From the IMG/VR virus record IMGVR_UViG_3300010998_000002, positions 1 to 64,000 of that record: 64,000 nucleotides of DNA; one strand, 5' to 3'. A model generated the notes under the pieces. That model was not told the DNA's origin, did not search any database, and saw only the letters and a program-made list of their open reading frames with translations. Shown here piece after piece: positions 1 to 63,790 of the stretch (within the stretch, counting starts at the first letter, position 1; every line of letters starts with the position of its first letter). The position numbers and the translations under genes are program-made. The stretch comes from a virus. Lineage: Duplodnaviria > Caudoviricetes.

Positions 1-42
1 TGCATTGATTCCTAAAATTAAACTTAATAACATTGTTAGCAT
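1..42 (-). CDS. 5' end of a CDS running off the window (MLTMLLSLILGINA...)
   Basis: ATG at 42 preceded by GGAG in the end of the upstream gene; hydrophobic N-terminus. Confidence 0.4.
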   Translation of the reverse strand, partial: MLTMLLSLILGINA

Positions 43-46
43 CGGT

Positions 47-610
47 TTATATCTCCATAATATATTCTAAATTCAAATTCCATTCATCATCCTTAAAAAT
101 CAATTTATTATCATGTATATTTTTTGCGCTTATATCTCCATATACTTTTTTAACTTCGTTATTATCATTTACATATTGAAAATAATAATCATTACTTCTA
201 AAAACTAATATACCATCCATTTCTTTTTTTCTATCCGGATTGTTTAAAGGTACTGTAAAATAAATTCTGTTAGCATCTGTAACAACATAGACAAAATCAT
301 TATCTCTATATTTATTCAATACTTTTAAACCGGATTTTTCTATTCTATCGGCGCATTCCTGCATAAATTCATCTTTTTGCCCATCTGTTTCATGCCAACT
401 AGCCATACTAAATTTATGTTCGGTTTCTTCATGCTTAATTAAAACATATTCTATATTATTATTGACTTTTTCTTTTTCTGCAATTTCTAAATTTTCTGCT
501 TTAACTTGATTCTCAAAATTTGCAATTTTTTCTTCGTTAGAAACAAAATTGTAGTCAATTCTTGATGCTTTTACTTGTTTTCTTTCTTTTAATTCTTTTA
601 ATGTAATCAT
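47..610 (-). CDS. hypothetical early protein
   Basis: 187-aa ORF with AAATAGGAG SD and own promoter. Confidence 0.75.
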   Translation of the reverse strand: MITLKELKERKQVKASRIDYNFVSNEEKIANFENQVKAENLEIAEKEKVNNNIEYVLIKHEETEHKFSMASWHETDGQKDEFMQECADRIEKSGLKVLNKYRDNDFVYVVTDANRIYFTVPLNNPDRKKEMDGILVFRSNDYYFQYVNDNNEVKKVYGDISAKNIHDNKLIFKDDEWNLNLEYIMEI

Positions 611-651
611 AATTTTTGCTCCTATTTATTATCTGTAATCTTTATATTATT

Positions 652-716
652 AGTATAATTCATTACTACTAAAAATACAATACTTTAAATAAATGATTGT
701 TACATTTCTTTACAAA
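652..716 (-). promoter_or_regulatory. early promoter P1 (TTGTAT-17-TATACT) with upstream HLR1-like box
   Basis: GTTACATT-TC-TTTACAAA at 699-716, 18 bp upstream of the -35. Confidence 0.7.
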
Positions 717-937
717 TTAATATTATAAAATTTTCGCATAAATATTATATTATTAAACGCCGGTTTATTATCTTTAAATAATTTTAAACAATCCTGTTTA
801 AATAATCCTACATAATAATTAAATATTTTATGATGTTTGATTATTCTAAAAAATTTTTCGGATTCTGCAAGTGTTAATTTTTTCGGTAATTTACCGGTAT
901 ATTGCTTTTTTAAAATTTGTTTTGTATTTTTATTCAT
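710..937 (-). CDS. hypothetical protein
   Basis: 75-aa ORF, AGGAG SD. Confidence 0.65.
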   Translation of the reverse strand: MNKNTKQILKKQYTGKLPKKLTLAESEKFFRIIKHHKIFNYYVGLFKQDCLKLFKDNKPAFNNIIFMRKFYNINL

Positions 938-954
938 GGTTATTCTCCTATAAA

Positions 955-1236
955 CTAAAACATTACATTTACTAACTTCAAATACTGATTACTGCTTATT
1001 TTCGGCGTGCTAATCTTAACCGCTTTTTGTTTTCCTGCTTTTATTTTTATATAACCTTTATTGTTGCTTAATCCTGCATTAATCTTTAAATCCTGCTTAT
1101 TAGCATCTTTTTTGTTATCTGCAACGCTTATTATATCAGCATTTCCGGTATCATTTACAATAACTTTATAACTTTTAGCATGCGCCATTGCCGGCAATAA
1201 TAAAAATATAAAACTAATAATTAATATTTTCTTCAT
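955..1236 (-). CDS. hypothetical secreted protein
   Basis: signal peptide MKKILIISFIFLLLPAMAHA with AxA cleavage motif. Confidence 0.7.
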   Translation of the reverse strand: MKKILIISFIFLLLPAMAHAKSYKVIVNDTGNADIISVADNKKDANKQDLKINAGLSNNKGYIKIKAGKQKAVKISTPKISSNQYLKLVNVMF

Positions 1237-1239
1237 GCT

Positions 1240-1908
1240 TTATACTCCTATTTCTTTTAACAATACCGGATTTTTACGCATCCATGCCTTAAATTCGGTT
1301 TTATTTAATGCTCTATACATTTCTATATCTCTATCATCTTTAGCCGTTACAATAACGCCTATTTCAACGGCATATTTTAAAACTTCTCTAATAACTTTAT
1401 GTGCGTTATTATCCCATTTTTGATTAATAGCATTTACATGATATTTGCTATTTAATCTATCACAATTGCCGATAAAATAATATTGATTTCTTCTATTAGT
1501 TTGAAAAATATTAAACAAATCTTTTACAATTTCATTTTTTCTGCTCCGGATTCTGTTTTCAACTTCTTCAATACTAATATTTTCATATTCTTTAAAAGTT
1601 TTTGTATATCTAAATTTAATAATATCTTGATTACATTCTTTTATTGCCTGCTCAATTACCGGTATTAATTCAATATCAATAATTCCTGATAATTCCATCG
1701 GATGACAATATAATTTGCTTATACCATCTTTATACTGATATTCGTTAGCGCTTGCGCTTAATGTTTTTTCTAATAATTTCCAATCCGGTAATTTTTCAAA
1801 CATTTTTTTAATTTCTGCATCAAATTTTTCCGATTGTTCAAGTGTATGACCGCTTCCCCATACATAACCGGATTCAATGTAAAAATAAGTTTCTTTAAAA
1901 ATTGCCAT
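1240..1908 (-). CDS. hypothetical early protein
   Basis: 222-aa ORF, AAATAAATAGGAG leader. Confidence 0.75.
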   Translation of the reverse strand: MAIFKETYFYIESGYVWGSGHTLEQSEKFDAEIKKMFEKLPDWKLLEKTLSASANEYQYKDGISKLYCHPMELSGIIDIELIPVIEQAIKECNQDIIKFRYTKTFKEYENISIEEVENRIRSRKNEIVKDLFNIFQTNRRNQYYFIGNCDRLNSKYHVNAINQKWDNNAHKVIREVLKYAVEIGVIVTAKDDRDIEMYRALNKTEFKAWMRKNPVLLKEIGV

Positions 1909-1944
1909 GTCATTATCTCCTATTTATTTATTTGCTACTCTATT

Positions 1945-2008
1945 ATTTTAAATCATTTTGTAGTATATTTCAATACTCTTTTTAGATGATGTTACAATTC
2001 TTTACAAT
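1945..2008 (-). promoter_or_regulatory. early promoter P2 (TTGAAA-17-TAAAAT) with HLR1-like box
   Basis: GTTACAAT-TC-TTTACAAT at 1991-2008. Confidence 0.7.
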
Positions 2009-2284
2009 TTCAAATATTATAGGTTGATAAGTTCTATTTTGCCAATCCTGTACTGTTTTAATAATAAAGTTTTTTGCGCCGGATAAAGTGTTATAGTTTT
2101 TAATTTCGCATGGTGTTAATTGATTTTTAATTGTAACAAAATAACTTCCATCGGATTCTGTACCTATTCTAATTTCATCTAGCGCCGTTAAAACTTTTAC
2201 ATGATTAACGGCTAAACATACAGATTTTACGCCATCTTGTTTGAATAATTTGTCTATTAATTTTAATGCCTGTTGTAATTCCAT
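1982..2284 (-). CDS. hypothetical protein
   Basis: 100-aa ORF directly downstream of 2290-2814. Confidence 0.65.
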   Translation of the reverse strand: MELQQALKLIDKLFKQDGVKSVCLAVNHVKVLTALDEIRIGTESDGSYFVTIKNQLTPCEIKNYNTLSGAKNFIIKTVQDWQNRTYQPIIFEIVKNCNII

Positions 2285-2289
2285 ATTTA

Positions 2290-2814
2290 TTAATTCTCTA
2301 TATTATCAATTTCGTATTTTAATACTAATATTGCATTTTCCAATACATTTAATTCATAATCTACAACTTGGTCTAGCGCATTCTGAAAATGAGTATCTAA
2401 ACAATTTGTAAAAGGATTATTTGTATTTATTGATTCCGTTAATTTTACTAAAACTTTATCAAAAAATTCTTTTTGTTGACCTTCTGATGTAAAATTAACC
2501 GGTAATTCAATTTCTCTAAAAGTTTCTTCGGTATCAATTTTTAAGACATTATAACCTGTTATATCGGTTGTATATTCTGCCTGATTAAATAACTCATACG
2601 CTTTGTTATAAACGGCATCTGTAATTGAATAATAAACATCAAATAAAAATCTGTTTAAACTCAATTCTCCGTTATCTCTTAATTCTTCTAAAATACCGGT
2701 AGGATTGCATGCATCTTCTGATAATGTTTGAAAACAATCTTTTAACATGTCTAAATCTGCAACTCCACAATTAAAAAGTGTTGTTAAAATAACTTCATTT
2801 GTTGTTAAATACAT
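2290..2814 (-). CDS. hypothetical acidic early protein
   Basis: 174-aa ORF with AAATAAATAGGAG leader. Confidence 0.7.
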   Translation of the reverse strand: MYLTTNEVILTTLFNCGVADLDMLKDCFQTLSEDACNPTGILEELRDNGELSLNRFLFDVYYSITDAVYNKAYELFNQAEYTTDITGYNVLKIDTEETFREIELPVNFTSEGQQKEFFDKVLVKLTESINTNNPFTNCLDTHFQNALDQVVDYELNVLENAILVLKYEIDNIEN

Positions 2815-2856
2815 AATTTCATCTCCTATTTATTTAAAGTATCAACTTATACTATA

Positions 2857-2920
2857 ATTATTTACGATTTTATAGTATAAGTCAATACTTTATTTGTATT
2901 ATTTTACAATTCTTAACAAT
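2857..2920 (-). promoter_or_regulatory. early promoter P3 (TTGACT -35) with HLR1-like box
   Basis: TTTACAAT-TC-TTAACAAT at 2903-2920; inverted repeat CTTATACTATAA/TTATAGTATAAG across the core. Confidence 0.7.
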
Positions 2921-4012
2921 TTATTCTACTACCATATTATCTAATCTATCATTAAATTTTACTATTGCTTGCAATACATCATCCGGTGTATTATATCTAT
3001 AATAATTTTCGCTATTATTATAAGCATCTTGTAAATTTTTCAGGTGTTTCAGGTAATCAATATATAATCTGTTTAAATCTTCTAATTTATCTAAAATAGT
3101 TTTATATGCGCTTTCCTGTGTTGTTTTCCATTCAGTATCAAAAGATGCTTCCTGCAATTTTTCAATTAAATCATTTTTAGTATTAAAAATACGAGTTCTA
3201 ATGATTTCATTTTGTTTTGAAAAATCCATGCGCTGTAAATTGTTTAATTCTCTTTTTGCTCTTAATTCTTTTGCCTTTGATTCAAGCATCTTTCTTTTCA
3301 CATAAAGATTATAACCGGATTTATCAAATACATCAAATTCTGTGTCGGTTTGTGCCGGATAATAACCTATATGGCAATCAAAATCAATGTCAATTTTAGC
3401 GTTATAATTATCTAATCTAGCATTATAAACGCCTGTAACCCTGCTTGCTGATACTTTATTATTCCATTGTTTGCGCAAATCTTTTTCATCATATCTGATA
3501 CGATTTAAGCATCTTGTATCATGAATATAGTTTTTTGCTAATTCTTTTTCCTGTGCTTGCTTAACATTTTTCTGATTCCATCTTCTACCCTCTGATTTAC
3601 TAAAGATTTCATCTTTTTTATCCATAGTTATTAAATATGCTTCTAACTCCGGATTTTTTCTATCTTCGTTAAAATCTGCTTTTCTGTAATAATTATCAAT
3701 ACCATCATTACTCCATGATGGCGTAAAACTTTCAATATCAAATTTTCCATCACTATCAACAATAACGGCATAAAATTTATGGTGATAAACTTCTTGTTTA
3801 AAATGTCTATCTTTAATGATTACAACTGCAAATTTTTCCGTTAAGTCGTTTTCTTTTACAACTTTAGCAAGTGTAAAAGGTGTTTTAAGTTCTTTAATTT
3901 CTACCGATGATTTCTCCTCAAAATCAAATCCAAAAATATCATGTAAACTTCTTAATGCTTTTTTGTTTACTGATAAAATCTTTTGTGCTGTTTCATAAAG
4001 TGCTTGTTTCAT
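2921..4012 (-). CDS. hypothetical early protein with C-terminal coiled coil
   Basis: 363-aa ORF with AAATAATAAATAGGAG leader. Confidence 0.75.
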   Translation of the reverse strand: MKQALYETAQKILSVNKKALRSLHDIFGFDFEEKSSVEIKELKTPFTLAKVVKENDLTEKFAVVIIKDRHFKQEVYHHKFYAVIVDSDGKFDIESFTPSWSNDGIDNYYRKADFNEDRKNPELEAYLITMDKKDEIFSKSEGRRWNQKNVKQAQEKELAKNYIHDTRCLNRIRYDEKDLRKQWNNKVSASRVTGVYNARLDNYNAKIDIDFDCHIGYYPAQTDTEFDVFDKSGYNLYVKRKMLESKAKELRAKRELNNLQRMDFSKQNEIIRTRIFNTKNDLIEKLQEASFDTEWKTTQESAYKTILDKLEDLNRLYIDYLKHLKNLQDAYNNSENYYRYNTPDDVLQAIVKFNDRLDNMVVE

Positions 4013-4055
4013 AATTTAATCTCCTATTTATTTGTAACATTCATTTTATACTTAT

Positions 4056-4120
4056 AGTATAAAGCATTACTATTAAAATTGCAATACTCCAATAGTATGA
4101 AATTTACAAAACTTAACATG
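4056..4120 (-). promoter_or_regulatory. early promoter P4 (TTGCAA-17-TATACT) with HLR1-like box
   Basis: TTTACAAA-AC-TTAACATG at 4103-4120. Confidence 0.65.
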
Positions 4121-4556
4121 TTCCCATAAATACGCCGATAATCTCATTATTTAAGACTATTTGTAATTGATGCCATCTTACCCTATCGGTATATAATTCA
4201 ATGTCGGGTGCTATATTCATTAATCGTTTAAAATCACCCTTACTCATGCCGATTGAATAATCCGGATTTACCGGCAATAATACATAATTTTCTTTACTAA
4301 AATCAGGCGTTATTTTTTCAGGATGTGTTGCCCTATCTAGCATCAACAAATCTTTTAATGTTTTTACTACCGGATTCAATAACAATTTTTCTAATTTTGC
4401 AATCTCTTTTACTGTTACGAGTTCAGCATTAATAGATTTTCTAACAATAACATAATCTTCTTTTATTGCCCATGTGCCGTTGCTTATAAATCCATCTTCT
4501 TTTACTAAATATTTACTTGCCATTAATTCGCATTTATTCACATTATATTTGCGCAT
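4113..4556 (-). CDS. hypothetical early protein
   Basis: 147-aa ORF, AGGAG SD; C-terminus IIGVFM. Confidence 0.7.
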   Translation of the reverse strand: MRKYNVNKCELMASKYLVKEDGFISNGTWAIKEDYVIVRKSINAELVTVKEIAKLEKLLLNPVVKTLKDLLMLDRATHPEKITPDFSKENYVLLPVNPDYSIGMSKGDFKRLMNIAPDIELYTDRVRWHQLQIVLNNEIIGVFMGTC

Positions 4557-4617
4557 GCCGATTCTCCTATAAATTATTTACTCTTTCAAGTAAATTGTAG
4601 TAATAACTTATACTATT

Positions 4618-4682
4618 ATTATTTATCATGCCGGCGTATAAGTCAATACTACAAATAGTGTATTGTTACAAATCTTTACAAA
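4618..4682 (-). promoter_or_regulatory. early promoter P5 (TTGACT -35) with HLR1-like box
   Basis: GTTACAAA-TC-TTTACAAA at 4665-4682. Confidence 0.7.
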
Positions 4683-4711
4683 AAGAAAATGCCCATAATT
4701 ACTATGGGCAT
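4681..4711 (-). terminator. intrinsic terminator
   Basis: ATGCCCATA-attac-TATGGGCAT hairpin followed by T-tract on minus strand. Confidence 0.75.
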
Positions 4712-4744
4712 AATTTTAAATAAATAGGATTTATGAAAATTTTA

Positions 4745-5311
4745 TTATTCCGGCATCTCTAGTGGTTTTTTGCCTGCTTTAGTTTTATTGCATGCTTCTG
4801 TAATATCTCCTGCAACTGCAAAAACTTCTTCTAAAGGTGCGTACTTCATCGCTAATTCTCTTAATTTTGAAATGGTATTTATTAATTCACTTTTTGCAAC
4901 ATTCCATGCTTGTCTTTCATGTTCTAATTGCATATATTTTGTACGATATTTAACTCTAGCAACTTGTAATTTATGTTGTAAATTAGCATCTTTTTGTTGC
5001 GCTGTAATTTGTTTTAACAACTCGGTTAATTGCTTATTTGTATCATTGTTTAGAATATCATTTTCTACAGTTTGCAATTCTGCTTCTTGGATTTTTACAA
5101 AATCTGTAGATTTAACCGATTTTTTCGCAACTTTTTTCGGGCCGGTCTTTTTAACCGGTGTTGTTTTTGCTTTTACTTCTTTTTGTACTTTAGCAACTGT
5201 TTTTTTAATTTCTTCTTTTTTTGTTGCCGGTTTTCTTCCTCGTTTTTTTGGTGCTGTAACATCTGCTACAGTTCTTGTTTCTTTTTTCTTAATGATTGTT
5301 TTTTTTGCCAT
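4745..5311 (-). CDS. basic histone H1-like / AT-hook-like DNA-binding protein with C-terminal coiled coil
   Basis: Lys/Thr/Ala/Pro-rich N-terminus including PKKRGRKP. Confidence 0.55.
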   Translation of the reverse strand: MAKKTIIKKKETRTVADVTAPKKRGRKPATKKEEIKKTVAKVQKEVKAKTTPVKKTGPKKVAKKSVKSTDFVKIQEAELQTVENDILNNDTNKQLTELLKQITAQQKDANLQHKLQVARVKYRTKYMQLEHERQAWNVAKSELINTISKLRELAMKYAPLEEVFAVAGDITEACNKTKAGKKPLEMPE

Positions 5312-5354
5312 AATTTTTCATCCTTTCATTTAATTGTGTAACTATTTTATGTAT

Positions 5355-6107
5355 TTATCCAATAAATTCGGTTTCTGTAATTTCTGTATATGGATATTGT
5401 TTAGGTTTTTTAACTACATTTTGATTAAAATAACCGCCTGCGCTTGCTGTTCCGGATTCATCAATACTTGCCACATTATCAAATAAAAACATAGGTATAT
5501 TTTTATATAAATAAGTTCTTCCGGTCTTAAATGTCATTGTCAATTCTTTATTAACTCTATCATATACCATTAATGCTAAATGTGATGAGTTTACAAATTG
5601 ATAAGTTAATTTTTGTGTTTTTTCATCAAATTCAATACCTTTAGATGTGTTTATAATTTCTTTAGTTTTTTGCGCTGGTTTTTTAGATTTTTTAGCAAAT
5701 TTTTCAGATAAAGTTTTATTTGCTAAATCCATATATTTTGAAAATCCGTTATCGCTTAATACTTCATTTTCTGATTCATTGGATTTTTCAACTACTTCAC
5801 ATACTAAAGGTGTAACCGGTGGAATAGTTTTTGCATATCCCATATTTACATTATGTTCATTGATTACTTCTTTAGTTTCTGCATCTAGTGGTTTTCTTTT
5901 CGGTAATTCTACATTAATCATGTTATATTCCATGCCTACGGCATCGGATAATTCTTTAATAACAGATTCTAAAATTACTACTGACATTTTGTCATCATAC
6001 ATACTTTTTAAATGTAATTTTAAAACATCTAGTTTACCTACACTATTTGTCATTACTGCTATTGCTTTTAAATATTTTTCTACGCTTAAATTTTCATCAA
6101 CTTGCAT
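5355..6107 (-). CDS. KTSC domain-containing protein
   Basis: C-terminal SSHL..VYD....L.MTFKTGRTYLY.NIP...F......SAGGYFNQNV fits the KTSC pattern. Confidence 0.75.
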   Translation of the reverse strand: MQVDENLSVEKYLKAIAVMTNSVGKLDVLKLHLKSMYDDKMSVVILESVIKELSDAVGMEYNMINVELPKRKPLDAETKEVINEHNVNMGYAKTIPPVTPLVCEVVEKSNESENEVLSDNGFSKYMDLANKTLSEKFAKKSKKPAQKTKEIINTSKGIEFDEKTQKLTYQFVNSSHLALMVYDRVNKELTMTFKTGRTYLYKNIPMFLFDNVASIDESGTASAGGYFNQNVVKKPKQYPYTEITETEFIG

Positions 6108-6141
6108 TTTTTCTGCTCCTATTTATTATTTTTATACTATC

Positions 6142-6206
6142 AGTATAAACTATTACTAATTATTTTGCAATAGTCTAAATAGACTATATTTACATTTCTT
6201 AACATT
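6142..6206 (-). promoter_or_regulatory. early promoter P6 (TTGCAA-17-TATACT) with HLR1-like box
   Basis: TTTACATT-TC-TTAACATT at 6189-6206. Confidence 0.7.
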
Positions 6207-6618
6207 CGGTTTCTATTTCAATTTCAAAACATCTATTATATCCATCATCACAAAAACTTGATACAGGTGCATAATGGTAATTATCATCAAATTGATTATA
6301 ATACAAAACTTTTATTAACGCATCTTTATCATAAGCATTTTGTAATTCTTCTATCAATTCTGCAACTGTTTTAAATTTCAATATTTTATTTATATCGGCT
6401 AATTTTTTCAATTGATTAAATTGTTTATCTCTAGTCAATGAGAAAAATTTAACCGGCACTTTTACATATTGTATATGTATAGTTTTTGATATTTCCTCAA
6501 TAAATTCATTGTCTTTACTTGTTGAAAAGTTTATAATTTCCGGTGTCATTTTACCGGTTCTATTATATACTTCTTTCCATAACATTATTATTGATATTTG
6601 CAATTCTTCTTTAGCCAT
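6199..6618 (-). CDS. hypothetical protein
   Basis: 139-aa ORF, AGGAG SD. Confidence 0.7.
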   Translation of the reverse strand: MAKEELQISIIMLWKEVYNRTGKMTPEIINFSTSKDNEFIEEISKTIHIQYVKVPVKFFSLTRDKQFNQLKKLADINKILKFKTVAELIEELQNAYDKDALIKVLYYNQFDDNYHYAPVSSFCDDGYNRCFEIEIETEC

Positions 6619-6629
6619 AATTAATTCTC

Positions 6630-6854
6630 CTATACCAAATCAATATTATTATTTTTTAATAAATTATATAATTTTTCATTGATTTTCATGGCTTCGGTGC
6701 ATCTCTTTTGAAAATGTCTAGCGGTTTTTTCATCGCCCTGTTGTTTTAATTGTCTAATTCTAACCTTATGATTTAAAATACTATTTACTAATTCATCTCT
6801 AATGGTTTTTAAATCCTTAACCGGTATTGTTAGTTCAAATTCTGTTTTTGTCAT
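6630..6854 (-). CDS. hypothetical protein
   Basis: 74-aa ORF with AAATAGGAG leader. Confidence 0.7.
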   Translation of the reverse strand: MTKTEFELTIPVKDLKTIRDELVNSILNHKVRIRQLKQQGDEKTARHFQKRCTEAMKINEKLYNLLKNNNIDLV

Positions 6855-6894
6855 AATTCTTGCTCCTATTTATTAAGTAACTTATTATACTATT

Positions 6895-6958
6895 ATTATT
6901 TACTATCTTATAGTATAAGTCAATACTCTAAAAGTATTATTTTACAAATCTTAACAAT
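6895..6958 (-). promoter_or_regulatory. early promoter P7 (TTGACT -35) with HLR1-like box
   Basis: TTTACAAA-TC-TTAACAAT at 6941-6958. Confidence 0.7.
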
Positions 6959-7521
6959 TATACTTCTATTTCTTGGGATGCCGGCGCTAATAATCCAACT
7001 ATTTTACCATTATCAACAAAATAATATAGTTTCATATCATCCCATCCATGTTTTTCTTCCGGTTGATTTTCCATTAACTGCATATTCGGATTTAATTTTA
7101 ACATTTTAGGAATAAAGTTTGTAAAATAATATTCACTTATTCCGTATCTTAAATGTCTAACAGTAACTCCATCAAATCCATGACTCTCTAGCACAAAAGA
7201 TTCTGATGTGTTAAGATAATTTATTTTATTCGTTTTTCCTGTTCTTTTACTTATATATTCTACCGGCACAAATTTTGTAAAATCAACCGGTTTTAAATTG
7301 ATTCCATCTTTTCTAATGTGTCTATCAAAATAATCTTTTATTCTATTATCTTCTATAGAATGTAAACCATGCCCATTATTTACACTTGCATCTACTTTAC
7401 AAAAATTCAGATAATCAATATTAAACATTATATCATGGTTAGTAAATAATCCATTTTCATCTACTGCTAATCCAAATCCGTAATTGTTTAAAAAATCTTT
7501 TGTTAATGTTAATTGTTTCAT
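6958..7521 (-). CDS. hypothetical early protein
   Basis: 187-aa ORF; C-terminus IVGLLAP. Confidence 0.7.
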   Translation of the reverse strand: MKQLTLTKDFLNNYGFGLAVDENGLFTNHDIMFNIDYLNFCKVDASVNNGHGLHSIEDNRIKDYFDRHIRKDGINLKPVDFTKFVPVEYISKRTGKTNKINYLNTSESFVLESHGFDGVTVRHLRYGISEYYFTNFIPKMLKLNPNMQLMENQPEEKHGWDDMKLYYFVDNGKIVGLLAPASQEIEV

Positions 7522-7553
7522 ATTTTTATCTCCTATTTATTTATTATATTTAT

Positions 7554-7618
7554 AGTATAAATTATTACTACATTTTTTTCAATAGTCTAAATGTATGATT
7601 GTTACATTTCTTTACAAA
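7554..7618 (-). promoter_or_regulatory. early promoter P8 (TTGAAA-17-TATACT) with HLR1-like box
   Basis: GTTACATT-TC-TTTACAAA at 7601-7618. Confidence 0.7.
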
Positions 7619-7644
7619 AAAGAAAATCCGGCATTGATGCCGGA
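7617..7644 (-). terminator. intrinsic terminator
   Basis: ATCCGGCA-ttga-TGCCGGAT hairpin plus T-tract on minus strand. Confidence 0.75.
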
Positions 7645-7670
7645 TAGAAAAGATTTTTATTCAATTAATA

Positions 7671-7946
7671 TTATAATACTACTTTATACTTATTTTGTAA
7701 TTTGTCATACTCATCAAAATCAAAAGGAAACATTGTAATTATGCGATAACTCACCGGATTAAATAATACCTTTAGCGGTATATGATTATAAATCGTATAT
7801 GCTAATAAATTGCCGGTATCTCGTTTTGGTTTAAATGCTTCACCTACAATTTTACCATCTTTTATATTTTTGCTTATTTTGCATATATCTTGTAAAGTAT
7901 AATTTTTATTATACCTTTGTTCCGCTCTATCTACTGCATGACACAT
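7671..7946 (-). CDS. hypothetical protein
   Basis: 91-aa ORF; HA..RA..R and C-terminal IITMFP are loosely RelE/DUF4258-like. Confidence 0.55.
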   Translation of the reverse strand: MCHAVDRAEQRYNKNYTLQDICKISKNIKDGKIVGEAFKPKRDTGNLLAYTIYNHIPLKVLFNPVSYRIITMFPFDFDEYDKLQNKYKVVL

Positions 7947-7949
7947 AAT

Positions 7950-8207
7950 TTAATCTCCAAACATTCTTTTTTGTTCTTTTGGATTCCTGCTGTAATCATA
8001 ATCAAATGACTTGTAATCATATTCTCGGCTACTAAAAATACTTTGGCATGCTTTCAATAAGCCGTTTTCTAAACTATCCTCAAAATCAAACTCGGTATCT
8101 TGTACTTTTACTCTAATTTTATACAAGTCATGCCATACTTCATTTTCTTTTCTGCTAACACTTTTTACTTCTAATAATTTAACTTTGGGTTTACTTGCTA
8201 CTGTCAT
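7950..8207 (-). CDS. hypothetical protein
   Basis: 85-aa ORF, GAGGAG SD. Confidence 0.7.
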   Translation of the reverse strand: MTVASKPKVKLLEVKSVSRKENEVWHDLYKIRVKVQDTEFDFEDSLENGLLKACQSIFSSREYDYKSFDYDYSRNPKEQKRMFGD

Positions 8208-8485
8208 GTTTTTCTCCTCTTATTATGCGTATCAAACTAAAAAATCCGTTTAAAATATTATGCCTGCTGTGGTTTTAAATCTTACATCAAGTATTATATA
8301 CCCTGTTTACTTGATAACCACTCATAAAATCCTCGCTTTCCTTTTTACTAATAAACACTTATACAATCTTTTGTATAATAAAATACTACTACAAATTTTA
8401 AAATCTGTCAATAGTAAATTTAAAAAATTTTAAAAATGTTACAATATCAGCATTTACAATACCCAAATCAACGCAAATTTAAAAT

Positions 8486-24635: not shown

Positions 24636-24875
24636 TTATACTTGCCATATTAATATTATATCACATACAAACGGAATAGTCAAATCTATTTTATAATTCA
24701 TAACATTATGTTCAACATCAAATTCGTAATCAGCATTATGCCAAAAATCAAGTTTATAAAAAGGTATAAGTCTTACTACTGTTGAAAATGGTAATCTACT
24801 AGTATCAATTCTAAAACCCAACAAACATTTTGATAAAAAATAAATCCAAATCGTATTCCAAAATTCTAAAATCAT
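24636..24875 (-). CDS. hypothetical protein
   Basis: 79-aa coupled ORF. Confidence 0.55.
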   Translation of the reverse strand: MILEFWNTIWIYFLSKCLLGFRIDTSRLPFSTVVRLIPFYKLDFWHNADYEFDVEHNVMNYKIDLTIPFVCDIILIWQV

Positions 24876-28283: not shown

Positions 28284-29060
28284 CTAAACATTTACTAATT
28301 CTGGATGTTCTTGATAATAAATATCTTCTATATCAATTATTGACATATCTTGTAATTTATTTTCAGCATTCAATGTTTTAAGCAAATTGAACACCCTAAC
28401 TTCATCTTCCGAAGAAAAAATCTTTTTAACATTATTACCCTGTTGTAGTTTTTCTTTAACGGCTCTCATTTGTTTCCAAAATTTATAAAATCTAGTTTTG
28501 TATTTAACCATAAAGCCATTAGCATCTTCAAATACCCAACCTTCATATTGAATATCATAAGAAGAATCTTGTGATTTTTTAAAGGCATATAATTCTTCCC
28601 AACAATTGAATGTATATGCAACTTGTTTTACTTCTAAACCAAGATAATCTGCTACTTTAACGACTTCATTATAATTACTTTTCTTAAATTCAAATTCATT
28701 TTCCACAATATCTAATAAAAATAAATGATTTTTTTGATATTTAATAATATGCGGGTCATTATTTATATCAACACATTCACAAACCAATGTGCAATTATTT
28801 TCTTTGCAATATTGTTTAATGGTATTTCTTCTAATTTTTGGCATTGATTCTAATTGCTGTTTAATATAACCTACAAAATCACCATCATTAGTTGATTTTG
28901 AGCATATCAAAAGTTCATCGGTATTCCAATTATATGAAATTAAAGCCAAAAATCCATTTTCTTTTTTGTATGCAGTAACCGGAAATACTAATATCTTTTT
29001 TAATTGTTCTGACTTCCAACTTTCTGATTTATCTGGTATTAATAATTCTTTATTTATCAT
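28284..29060 (-). CDS. RNA ligase (Rnl1-like), C-terminal catalytic half
   Basis: motif I KENG, SKS, E..D.H.I.Y, EGWV, KYK..FYK; own SD GGAG 8 nt before ATG at 29060. Confidence 0.85.
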   Translation of the reverse strand: MINKELLIPDKSESWKSEQLKKILVFPVTAYKKENGFLALISYNWNTDELLICSKSTNDGDFVGYIKQQLESMPKIRRNTIKQYCKENNCTLVCECVDINNDPHIIKYQKNHLFLLDIVENEFEFKKSNYNEVVKVADYLGLEVKQVAYTFNCWEELYAFKKSQDSSYDIQYEGWVFEDANGFMVKYKTRFYKFWKQMRAVKEKLQQGNNVKKIFSSEDEVRVFNLLKTLNAENKLQDMSIIDIEDIYYQEHPELVNV

Positions 29061-29970
29061 ATTGCTTTCTCCATTTTTCTCTATTATAATAAACATATTG
29101 AAAATTTATATTATGCTCTTTTGCATATTGCATACAATTTAAGTTTGGATTTTCCTCAAAGGCTTTAAACAATTCTTCTTGTATAAAATTATACTTCATT
29201 TTTGGTGAAATGTCAAACATTACTTTTTTATATTCAATATATTTATTGTATTTATATGACTTATAAACCGAGATATTTTTATATAAAAAATCACAGAATC
29301 TTAATGCTTTAATCCCATTAAACCTAATATCTATAACATTATTTTTTTTACAAAATTTAGCATTTTGAAATATAGATATTTTTTCTAATTGCTTTTGCAT
29401 ATTAAATGAACATACAAAACTAATAGACAACATATTTTTATAAACGCCAATACAACCATCACCATCAATATATCCGATAAAAAAATACTTTAATTTATTT
29501 AAGTCATTTAAAATATATTCAGGTATGTGAAAATTATAAGTTTTTCTAGGTTTTATATTATTTTCTATTAATTTTTGCCAAATTTTTTGACTTCTAAAAC
29601 TTAATGAATAAACTTGTTTACCAACTTTAGGATTAGTAATATAAATAGGATAATTTGTATCTAATATTTTTTTTATATATTCAATTAATTTTAATCCATT
29701 ATCCCCAGATTGAGAAATAGAGATTGTGTGATTAAGTTCATTTAAACATCCATCAGAAGCCATTAAACCCAAAAAGTAATATTTTATATTACTATCAATA
29801 TCTAAAAAATTATCATTTAATTTATATTGTCGTTTAAAATTTTTACCACGTTGTTTAGTAGTTAATGCACTAGATTTATGACTACATACATCAGAACAGC
29901 ACATCCGAATCTTTGACGTTGTAGTAAAAGTTTTACCGCAATATTTACATTTTTTTACAAACTCTCTCAT
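29050..29970 (-). mobile_element. double-motif LAGLIDADG homing endonuclease with N-terminal zinc finger
   Basis: YFLGLMASDGC and FFIGYIDGDGC; CKYCG...CCSDVC; sits between the two RNA ligase halves. Confidence 0.9.
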
Positions 29971-62435: not shown

Positions 62436-63314
62436 TTATTTAATACGAACTACATAATATCCACTACCGTTAATCGGTCTGCATTCTGTAACTCCATTTT
62501 GATAAACACTAGATGAACGAGAAGCATCAAATGCCAATGTTTCAAACCAACCTCTCGTACCATCACAACCATTACCGGCTTGTGCTTGACGATAAAAACA
62601 GCCTGTTGGATTTTTAGGTAATCCGGTTTCATTTTCTTGCGAATCAAAGAATGTGCCTGTGATATTTGGTGATGCACTACCTTGTATAGTACCAAATACA
62701 CGACCCCTATCTCTATTCGTGCCACCATCCCAACCACGAATAAACATACCACGATAATCTGGTACGTTAAATGTAGTAGAGCCATTTCCAGCACCAAAGG
62801 CAGTTCCAACCATTGCAAAATATCCTGCATAAGTAGTACGAGAAATAGCACGCCCATCACATGGTACTACGACAACATCTGCCGGAAGTGAAGGTATAGT
62901 TGGATAAGACAAACATTTAACTTCTCCTAGCCACATACTACCATTAATTGCCTTATCAACATATTCTTTATTAACAGCATCCGTATTATTAGACGGTGTA
63001 TAAGTTAATGTAATTTTATTATTGCCCATATTAAGCAATCCTGTCATTACACCGCCTGCTTTAGATAATTTATCATTATATAATTCTTCAATATAATCAA
63101 CTATCCATTTAACAGTAGAATGAACTTGATACCAAAACATATTAAATTTATTTGCATCTGGTCTTGATGTTAAATCTGTTTCAGTTTCACCGTCATTATT
63201 ATAACCATCAAGAATTTCACCGGTAGTCATAGCCGATTTTGAACTATTATTACTTGCAAATAATGTATCAAATGGTAATATATTATCGCCTGTCGGTTTT
63301 ATAGGGTATGACAT
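62436..63314 (-). CDS. tail fibre protein with tail-collar domain
   Basis: DAVNKEYVD repeat; CDGRAISRTTY..F...GT.FG.G.GSTTFNVPDYRG.FIRG. Confidence 0.88.
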   Translation of the reverse strand: MSYPIKPTGDNILPFDTLFASNNSSKSAMTTGEILDGYNNDGETETDLTSRPDANKFNMFWYQVHSTVKWIVDYIEELYNDKLSKAGGVMTGLLNMGNNKITLTYTPSNNTDAVNKEYVDKAINGSMWLGEVKCLSYPTIPSLPADVVVVPCDGRAISRTTYAGYFAMVGTAFGAGNGSTTFNVPDYRGMFIRGWDGGTNRDRGRVFGTIQGSASPNITGTFFDSQENETGLPKNPTGCFYRQAQAGNGCDGTRGWFETLAFDASRSSSVYQNGVTECRPINGSGYYVVRIK

Positions 63315-63790
63315 TATTTTCCTTCCTGTTGTTTCTTCTCTTTATCCCATCCACAAAATTTTTGAAAATTATCAACTGCTAAAAACATAACTCTGCGTTT
63401 AATTTTATTAACGCCTGCTACTCTTAATAACCTTTCAAAAATAATAGAACTTAAATATCTATCATATCCAATAAAATCATGATTTTCACATAATTTATCA
63501 TGAATCATAGACGGTATTCTAAATCTATTATCTGATGGACTTCCTATTAAATTCCATAAGCCAAAAGGAATATTAGCGCCATTCCAACGATAATGTTTCT
63601 CTACAGGAAATATATAAGTTTTATCACCATATTTAACAGTAACTTCAATTTCGTGTAAAAGTAAATAAGGTTTTTTATTAATGTCTTTTATTTCTTCTGG
63701 CGTAGAATTTGGAGTTGCATTTAATGTTTCTGTTCTAGGCATACGACTAAATTGTATAGTAACTATTTCATCTGCATACCAAGTAATCAT
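63314..63790 (-). CDS. DUF1353-like protein
   Basis: WNGANIP...W...G.P...SMIHD.LC motif. Confidence 0.7.
   Translation of the reverse strand: MITWYADEIVTIQFSRMPRTETLNATPNSTPEEIKDINKKPYLLLHEIEVTVKYGDKTYIFPVEKHYRWNGANIPFGLWNLIGSPSDNRFRIPSMIHDKLCENHDFIGYDRYLSSIIFERLLRVAGVNKIKRRVMFLAVDNFQKFCGWDKEKKQQEGK

Follow-up and report, generated by a model that had tools for sequence, protein, structure and literature searches.

The window analysed here, positions 1 to 64,000 of the 108,612-bp IMG/VR virus record IMGVR_UViG_3300010998_000002, belongs to an uncultured tailed gut phage in which the promoters of a presumably early gene block each carry a conserved direct repeat, or box, at a fixed distance upstream of the -35 hexamer. 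These boxes probably represent HLR1-type sites for RpaB, an OmpR/PhoB-class response regulator of the host, most likely a gut member of the Gastranaerophilales. The block (positions 1-8207 of the window, minus strand) consists of small genes without known families, read leftwards from the boxed promoters, and most of its proteins had no match in a family search. It extends from ~8.4 kb through position 1 and across the contig junction to ~107,150, the 99-bp overlap of the record ends being as left by circular assembly, and contains ten boxed promoters.

On the gene strand, the box reads TTGTWAAG-NN-WTGTAAM, i.e., TGTWA repeated with a 10-bp period; in the opposite reading direction, that of HLR1, the second repeat takes the form TT(T/A)ACA. 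The pattern KTTACAWWNNTTWACAWW has 8 exact matches in the 64-kb window against 0.07 expected (100 shuffles, maximum 1), and 12 matches against 2.0 expected when one mismatch is allowed. Seven of the exact matches (699, 1991, 2903, 4665, 6189, 6941 and 7601), together with one single-mismatch copy ending in ATG (4103), precede promoters. All eight boxes lie on one strand, the genes and promoters being on the minus strand. The unit layout is uniform on the gene strand: the box, 17-18 nucleotides (nt), TTGnnn, 17 nt, TATACT, AATAAT or TAAAAT, a short leader, AATAAATAGGAG and the start codon. Both the 17-18-nt gap to the -35 and the 17-nt spacer are constant at the ten promoters. With the -10 hexamer placed at -12 to -7, the 18-mer spans approximately -71 to -54, with its centre at about -61.5 to -62.5. 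The preliminary description had located eight boxes at these positions, 17-18 bp upstream of a TTG hexamer at roughly -70 to -53, retained even over the 3' end of an upstream gene, and had considered whether they might simply reflect AT-rich DNA; the placement held throughout, and in the shuffles the motif is far rarer.

The individual units all lie on the minus strand. Box 1 (TTTGTAAAGAAATGTAAC, 699-716) precedes a TTGTAT -35 (675-680) and a TATACT -10 (652-657) that drive gene 47-610. Box 2 (ATTGTAAAGAATTGTAAC, 1991-2008) is followed by TTGAAA (1968-1973) and TAAAAT (1945-1950) and gene 1240-1908. Box 3 (ATTGTTAAGAATTGTAAA, 2903-2920), which extends into the 3' end of gene 2921-4012 upstream of it, belongs to TTGACT (2880-2885) and AATAAT (2857-2862), driving gene 2290-2814. 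Gene 2921-4012 itself is driven from TTGCAA (4079-4084) and TATACT (4056-4061) below box 4, the copy with one mismatch (CATGTTAAGTTTTGTAAA, 4103-4120). Box 5 (TTTGTAAAGATTTGTAAC, 4665-4682), with an intrinsic terminator directly upstream (4711-4689), is associated with TTGACT (4641-4646), AATAAT (4618-4623) and gene 4113-4556. Box 6 (AATGTTAAGAAATGTAAA, 6189-6206) precedes TTGCAA (6165-6170) and TATACT (6142-6147), driving gene 5355-6107, which encodes a KTSC domain. Box 7 (ATTGTTAAGATTTGTAAA, 6941-6958), with TTGACT (6918-6923) and AATAAT (6895-6900), drives two genes, 6630-6854 and 6199-6618. Box 8 (7601-7618) has the same sequence as box 1, TTTGTAAAGAAATGTAAC; it again lies directly downstream of an intrinsic terminator (7645-7626) and precedes TTGAAA (7577-7582), TATACT (7554-7559) and gene 6958-7521. 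Two further boxed promoters, at 107461-107478 and ~108194-108211 of the record and hence outside the window, show the same spacing with a weaker distal half-site.

The box is restricted to this module. Its upstream boundary (8383-8460, minus strand) is formed by a TTGACA-17-TAGTAT promoter (8411-8383) that follows a terminator (8511-8492); this promoter was rejected as a boxed unit, its two TGTAA half-sites being 15 bp apart, not 10. About 30 other promoter candidates of the genome lack the box, scoring below 5 bits by the box matrix with a single 12-bit exception, and many of them are nearer to consensus than the early promoters. The genome-wide motif search proposed in the preliminary description thus added two boxed units across the junction and found the remaining promoters without the box. 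Because a generic sigma-70 consensus scan is not enriched in the AT-rich phage DNA (73 against 64.5), promoters were called from the aligned cassettes. The remaining exact match to the motif (29944-29961) falls inside the start of the minus-strand open reading frame (ORF) 29050-29970, with no promoter at the usual distance, and is probably a coding coincidence. The 12-bit word, AATGTTATGAATTATAAA (24690-24707, minus strand), is a weak box-like sequence separated by 6 nt from the downstream TTGACT-17-TATAAT promoter of the A1-like gene, a gap also found in the host 'class 2' promoters.

Conservation in related phages indicates that the box is maintained. Relatives were located through the DnaE polymerase. 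The closer one, G001 (IMGVR_UViG_3300045988_172516, 104.7 kb), has a DnaE 84% identical to that of the phage and carries seven units with the same layout, all seven boxes having the 4-nt spacer, while the early proteins of the two phages are only 30-75% identical and several have no counterpart. Across the 17 cassettes of both phages, the box columns are the most informative positions upstream of the -10, exceeding the -35, with an invariant core T(A/T)AAG-NNN-TGTAA(A/C); the stretch that separates box and -35 is variable. In G002, more distantly related (DnaE 60% identical), three weaker boxes stand upstream of TTGACA-17-TATAAT. Since the box persists despite the divergence of the early proteins and recurs in G002, it is unlikely to have been carried along by a recent duplication.

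The box corresponds to HLR1 in having two direct repeats of (G/T)TTACA(T/A)(T/A) with 2 nt between them and a 10-bp period. RpaB binds HLR1, and its effect depends on position: sites centred at about -51, upstream of the -35, activate, and those near the start, overlapping the core promoter, repress (PMC6525291). HLR1 elements are known in the RpaB regulon of Synechocystis 6803 as well as of S. elongatus, and they are mentioned in cyanophage genomes (PMC6525291). A WalR/YycF box was rejected on the spacer, which is 4 nt in all ten phage copies and all seven G001 copies, not 5, in agreement with the earlier assignment to the 10-bp HLR1 period over the 11-bp WalR spacing. An UP element was rejected as well, as the box occupies -54 to -71 and has both G and C among its invariant columns. 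UP elements, the sites of the alpha-subunit C-terminal domain, are A/T tracts at about -38 to -59 with no required G or C positions.

The regulator itself is most simply sought in the host, given that a six-frame search of the phage at E<=1 gave no match to the winged-helix domain of the OmpR type (PF00486, Trans_reg_C). The Gastranaerophilales genome MEL.A1 encodes only three OmpR-family proteins. One of them (L229:994-1746) scores 362 bits on the RpaB equivalog model NCBIfam NF045944, above the cut-off of 330, and the other two reach 204 and 211 bits. The equivalog is 69% identical to RpaB of Synechococcus WH7803, and the recognition helix DTRVVDVHISRLRSKLE and the helices preceding it are identical in the two proteins. 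Gut Melainabacteria were already known to encode RpaB and NblS homologues, the role of which was left open by Di Rienzi et al. 2013 (PMC3787301).

Gastranaerophilales genomes also contain the site itself. In five of them, TGTWAMNNNNTGTAAM occurs in 20-43 copies each, compared with 6-12 for the reversed control, and many of the copies are exact phage words. A pattern closer to the phage boxes, TGTWAMSWWWTGTAAM, was counted against its reversed form: 11 Vampirovibrionia genomes hold 215 copies against 13 (~16-fold), and 12 outgroup genomes, each chosen for holding at least one copy, hold 16 against 9. Chlorogloeopsis has 11 against 0; cyanobacterial genomes were reached through a back-translated PsbA motif. 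Gilliamella has 25 against 1, the 25 being copies of a single dispersed ~80-bp repeat, and was rejected as a rival host signal because these copies do not represent diverse promoters. This repeat (genome G448) is found at ~20 places (e.g., C52:3793-3871) and begins with TGTAAAGAAATGTAAA, followed by GATGAAAACGATTCGGTTTTATAGATAGGTGAATTTTATAATTAAAATAGGGTGTTAGC. A further pattern, TGTAAAGAAATGTAAM, was scanned in one genome from each of 185,579 species; among the 80 loci listed, at least 27 are from Cyanobacteriota (19 photosynthetic and 8 named Vampirovibrionia), far above the share of this phylum in the collection.

The host copies lie upstream of diverse promoters and are oriented as in the phage. 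In one class, the box is followed by 6 nt, TTTAAA, 17 nt, TATAAT and then (CATAG)n-type repeats; its centre at about -49.5 is the position where RpaB activates in Synechocystis (PMC6525291). In another, the box precedes ~14 nt, (N)TGAAA or TAGCAA, 16 nt and TACTTTATATA, with a centre at about -57 to -60. In a third, it lies upstream of a sigma-28-like TAAAGTTT-N11-12-CCGATA (e.g., G103:C1:1272932-1273024 and G335:C72:1246-1336), and RpaB may accordingly have a part in the expression of flagellar genes in these relatives of cyanobacteria, which are flagellated and non-photosynthetic. The TTTAAA-TATAAT family is multi-copy in Gastranaerophilales (G103:C1:1469180-1469270, 1522318-1522408 and 1053952-1054044; about nine copies in G335), with four to five pentanucleotide copies (CATAG, TATGC or ATATG) at the expected start, followed by a conserved GGCGCACTGTGTCAA and small genes. 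DNA matches of 70-80% between the promoter of box 8 (P7601) and Gastranaerophilales were rejected as mere AT-rich similarity.

The host of the phage is likely to belong to the Gastranaerophilales, a non-photosynthetic gut order of the class Vampirovibrionia ('Melainabacteria'). This assignment draws on the shared motif, a syntenic diversity-generating retroelement (DGR) module, the best DnaE scores, composition and a methionine transfer RNA (tRNA-Met). The DGR cassette and its neighbours (63,314-72,191 of the record) are syntenic in at least five Gastranaerophilales genomes (G211, G052, G229, G016 and G207). The shared genes comprise the target protein (38-52% amino acid identity), a small ORF, the reverse transcriptase (44-54%) and two accessory ORFs (42-46%), unusual small ORFs that stand in for Avd; the common neighbours are 64167-64535 (58%) and 63314-63790 (43%). 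The best reverse transcriptase among 50,697 phage records is 47.7% identical to that of the phage. The phage DnaE (42962-46495 of the window) scores 666-730 bits in all 11 Vampirovibrionia genomes compared with at most 650 in 14 others; two gammaproteobacterial genomes give 513-516. The chromosomal DnaE of Vampirovibrionia is consistently the most similar (40-43% amino acid identity). About half of 201 Gastranaerophilales genomes match a 20-kb DnaE/ThyX stretch at the DNA level with 65-75% identity.

Composition points in the same direction. The tetranucleotide z-score correlation with pooled Gastranaerophilales loci is 0.74 for the phage and 0.78 for G001, and 0.31 with Prochlorococcus loci, a suggestive result in favour of Gastranaerophilales. 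Relative to mononucleotide expectation, CCGG is 4.5-fold in the phage, 2.4-fold in G001, 2.3-fold in the pooled Gastranaerophilales loci and 0.05 in G002; GGCC is depleted in all four. The preliminary description had suggested a host in the cyanobacterial lineage and named several ways of checking it. The best candidate is indeed a member of that lineage: Gastranaerophilales genomes are enriched for the box upstream of their own promoters, MEL.A1 encodes an RpaB equivalog above the cut-off of the model, and the tRNA-Met of the phage shares 82% identity with a tRNA from Gastranaerophilales. The search for spacers of clustered regularly interspaced short palindromic repeats (CRISPR) did not contribute: no spacer in ~200 Gastranaerophilales genomes matched phage positions 1-84,000, and short near-exact matches were rejected as spacers for want of flanking repeats.

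In the favoured reading, the two TGTAA half-sites would be occupied by a phosphorylated RpaB dimer in head-to-tail arrangement, centred ~62 bp upstream of the start and on roughly the same helix face as polymerase at a sigma-70-type core promoter. In the manner of class I activators, the dimer would help to recruit polymerase, with the alpha-subunit C-terminal domain as the probable point of contact. All ten units of the first gene block would then be boosted upon DNA entry, and early output would follow the state of the NblS(Hik33)-RpaB pathway in the host. The earlier proposal that early transcription is wired to a host two-component regulator thus gains support, at the level of inference, from the motif, its host-side counterpart and the RpaB equivalog.

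Several observations weigh against this reading. The phage boxes are centred at about -62, ~11 bp or one helical turn upstream of the activating HLR1 position, and lie a few bp further out than in any host class that could be placed. The core promoters are already near consensus, so that an activator is not obviously needed, and several copies have a degenerate distal half-site (ATATTAAG, GAAGTTAAG). The other two OmpR-family proteins of MEL.A1 also stay candidates. Sites for CpxR and OmpR are likewise TGTAA-like repeats with a 10-bp period; the phage box fits the CpxR box (GTAAA-N5-GTAAA) and by sequence alone is indistinguishable from a CpxR-type site, so that it is the evidence from the host that favours RpaB. 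On the host side, the tetranucleotide composition of single 8-kb loci does not separate lineages, the spacer search was negative, and the putative capsid protein has no homologue in the Gastranaerophilales genomes searched. Finally, two clusters of boxes without an early-type promoter (described below) suggest that the boxes may do something besides activation.

Host RpaB could bind the boxes with a main role other than activation, either as a sink that draws RpaB away from host promoters with the build-up of phage DNA or as a brake on early transcription in particular host states, an unlikely explanation overall. Near-consensus core promoters should fire unaided, the genome holds ten sites in addition to promoter-less clusters of two to three boxes that are kept in G001, and the boxes lie further upstream than the activating position (PMC6525291). 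However, the fixed 17-18-nt distance at ten phage and seven G001 promoters points to a need for polymerase contact, which a sink would not have, and in the RpaB regulon as studied, sites upstream of the -35 activate, whereas the repressing ones overlap the core promoter (PMC6525291).

A phage protein with a non-OmpR fold, made early or carried in the virion, is a rather improbable reader of the boxes. Such a factor could shut off or coordinate the early genes, with the likeness to HLR1 due to coincidence or mimicry. Most early-block proteins lack a family match and may include a DNA-binding protein, an HU-like protein is encoded at 92,795-93,085, and clusters outside promoters would suit a phage-specific factor. 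Yet the six-frame search found no Trans_reg_C domain, a repressor at -54 to -71 would be unusual, and the same word, non-consensus positions included, is ~16-fold enriched upstream of Gastranaerophilales promoters, which would not be expected of a purely phage-specific site.

Quite unlikely, too, is a host outside the cyanobacterial lineage, with the box serving a CpxR-, OmpR- or ArcA-like regulator of another AT-rich gut bacterium. TGTAA/GTAAA direct repeats with a 10-bp period are common to several OmpR-family regulators. No CRISPR spacer ties the phage to Gastranaerophilales, its strong AGGAG ribosome-binding sites and 29% GC suit many gut lineages, and a Gilliamella genome holds 25 copies of the word. 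Those copies, however, trace back to the one dispersed repeat, and the twelve outgroup genomes besides Gilliamella are not enriched, nor is Haemophilus, the second gammaproteobacterial genome, whereas Cyanobacteriota are far over-represented among the 80 loci listed. Gastranaerophilales are favoured by each of four further lines: DnaE, the DGR module, tRNA-Met and pooled composition. That the boxes have no function of their own, being passengers of a recently duplicated promoter cassette or bent, UP-element-like DNA, is very improbable: the whole ~100-bp cassette (box, -35, -10 and AATAAATAGGAG) is repeated in an AT-rich region, but the box is more conserved than its flanks and spacer in two phages with diverged early proteins, its invariant positions include G and C that UP elements do not require, it lies upstream of the UP-element zone (-38 to -59), and the same word is independently enriched in host chromosomes.

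Set beside other systems, the arrangement combines familiar elements. The promoter-specific factors T4 MotA and phi29 p4 are phage-encoded, and their promoters, like the present ones, have a box that is conserved, keeps its distance from the core promoter and marks one temporal gene class. There, phage proteins read the boxes, which have no known counterpart in host chromosomes, whereas here the chromosomes of the host lineage are full of the site. The WalR (YycF) box of Firmicutes, TGT(A/T)A(A/T/C)-N5-TGT(A/T)A(A/T/C), is a direct repeat upstream of activated promoters with an almost identical half-site; it differs in its spacer, which is N4 in the phage and host copies, and the sampled Firmicutes genomes are not enriched for the N4 form. 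In marine cyanophages, host PhoR-PhoB controls pstS/phoA genes through a Pho box; common to both would be a phage promoter bearing the site of a response regulator of the OmpR/PhoB class from the host, which ties phage expression to a host two-component signal. Unlike the present box, a Pho box repeats every 11 bp, takes the place of the -35 and, late in infection, serves auxiliary metabolic genes instead of those expressed first.

Class I activation by CRP at -61.5 of the E. coli lac promoter serves as an analogy for the position (PMC6525291). In both, the site lies ~62 bp upstream of the start on one helix face, with a presumed contact to the alpha C-terminal domain; CRP, however, is a symmetric dimer on an inverted repeat, whereas the phage box is a direct repeat, as would suit a response-regulator dimer bound head-to-tail. 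The closest parallel is the HLR1/RpaB regulon itself, given the direct repeats 2 nt apart upstream of the -35 and a regulator with an identical recognition helix in the candidate host. Three differences stand out: the phage sites are centred at about -62 instead of -51; the likely host is non-photosynthetic, so that the input cannot be light acting through photosystems; and the phage uniformly wires ten transcription units of unknown function, not single photosynthesis-related genes.

The two box clusters without an early-type promoter lie outside the window, at 104,592-104,660 (L021:4592-4660) and 106,682-106,709 (L021:6682-6709). The first is a convergent box pair flanked by G/C runs and the second consists of three tandem half-site pairs. 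Both are located in the imperfect inverted-repeat arms (~250 bp) around a 2-kb segment with four small minus-strand genes, and both are conserved in G001. A titration role would be compatible with them, as would additional promoters of the RpaB type. To the right of the triple cluster, GGCTACTCAAAAACAATATTAAA resembles one host promoter class ('class 2'). The gene-poor region with these clusters has no Rfam match. Beside the box pair, at 104,438-104,578 (L021:4438-4578), three ~50-bp units, each ending in ATATCGTTGGAAT(A/G), occupy the gene-poor zone where two gene arms converge; the same word is found in G001, and the units could be a packaging or replication site.

Beyond the early block, the minus strand holds the genes from position 1 to ~54.8 kb. 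The phage encodes a DnaE-type polymerase, NrdD, a T5 A1-like protein, a DnaB-type helicase, ThyX, several DNA methylases and the HU-like protein, in addition to the DGR reverse transcriptase and its cassette. A second promoter type, (A)AGTTTAC(A)-N17-18-TATAA(T), precedes structural and other operons (20224, 29616, 30056 and 60712 of the window; 67637, 74961, 80646, 91682 and 92048 of the record); its -35, TTTACA, is the HLR1 half-site core in the opposite orientation. Searches against cultured phages found no close cultured relative. Among 50,697 phage records, a near-identity search with 20 kb of the phage gave no match, nor did the putative capsid protein, and the A1-like protein and DnaE gave no useful host hint. 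No relatives were found in IMG/VR through an early protein or a strict box-plus-promoter pattern, and species-genome scans with single proteins (a membrane protein and NrdD) returned no match.

Phage promoters that read a host two-component regulator are already known. What appears to be new, as far as the literature shows, is the combination of a non-photosynthetic host lineage, an early block wired uniformly as a whole and a site one helical turn upstream of the established position; no characterised phage of Gastranaerophilales was found in the searchable literature. Every unit of the first gene block carries the putative site of one regulator, and its position is fixed. Because the recognition helix of cyanobacterial RpaB is identical, the phage promoters are directly testable in Synechocystis or S. 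elongatus. The shared motif also provides a way to link uncultured phages to uncultured Gastranaerophilales.

For the host lineage, whose RpaB and NblS homologues were noted when its genomes were described (PMC3787301), the host-side result supplies a concrete, testable Gastranaerophilales RpaB regulon of dozens of boxed promoters per genome, some of them of the sigma-28 type. A bolder version, which is unlikely as it stands, would make this a virulent phage whose whole immediate-early programme is gated by host NblS-RpaB and whose boxes and clusters also soak up RpaB as the genome replicates. If true, RpaB would trigger the infection and at the same time be a host-takeover target, and NblS-RpaB would, by motif evidence, also stand upstream of flagellar-type and many lineage-specific promoters.

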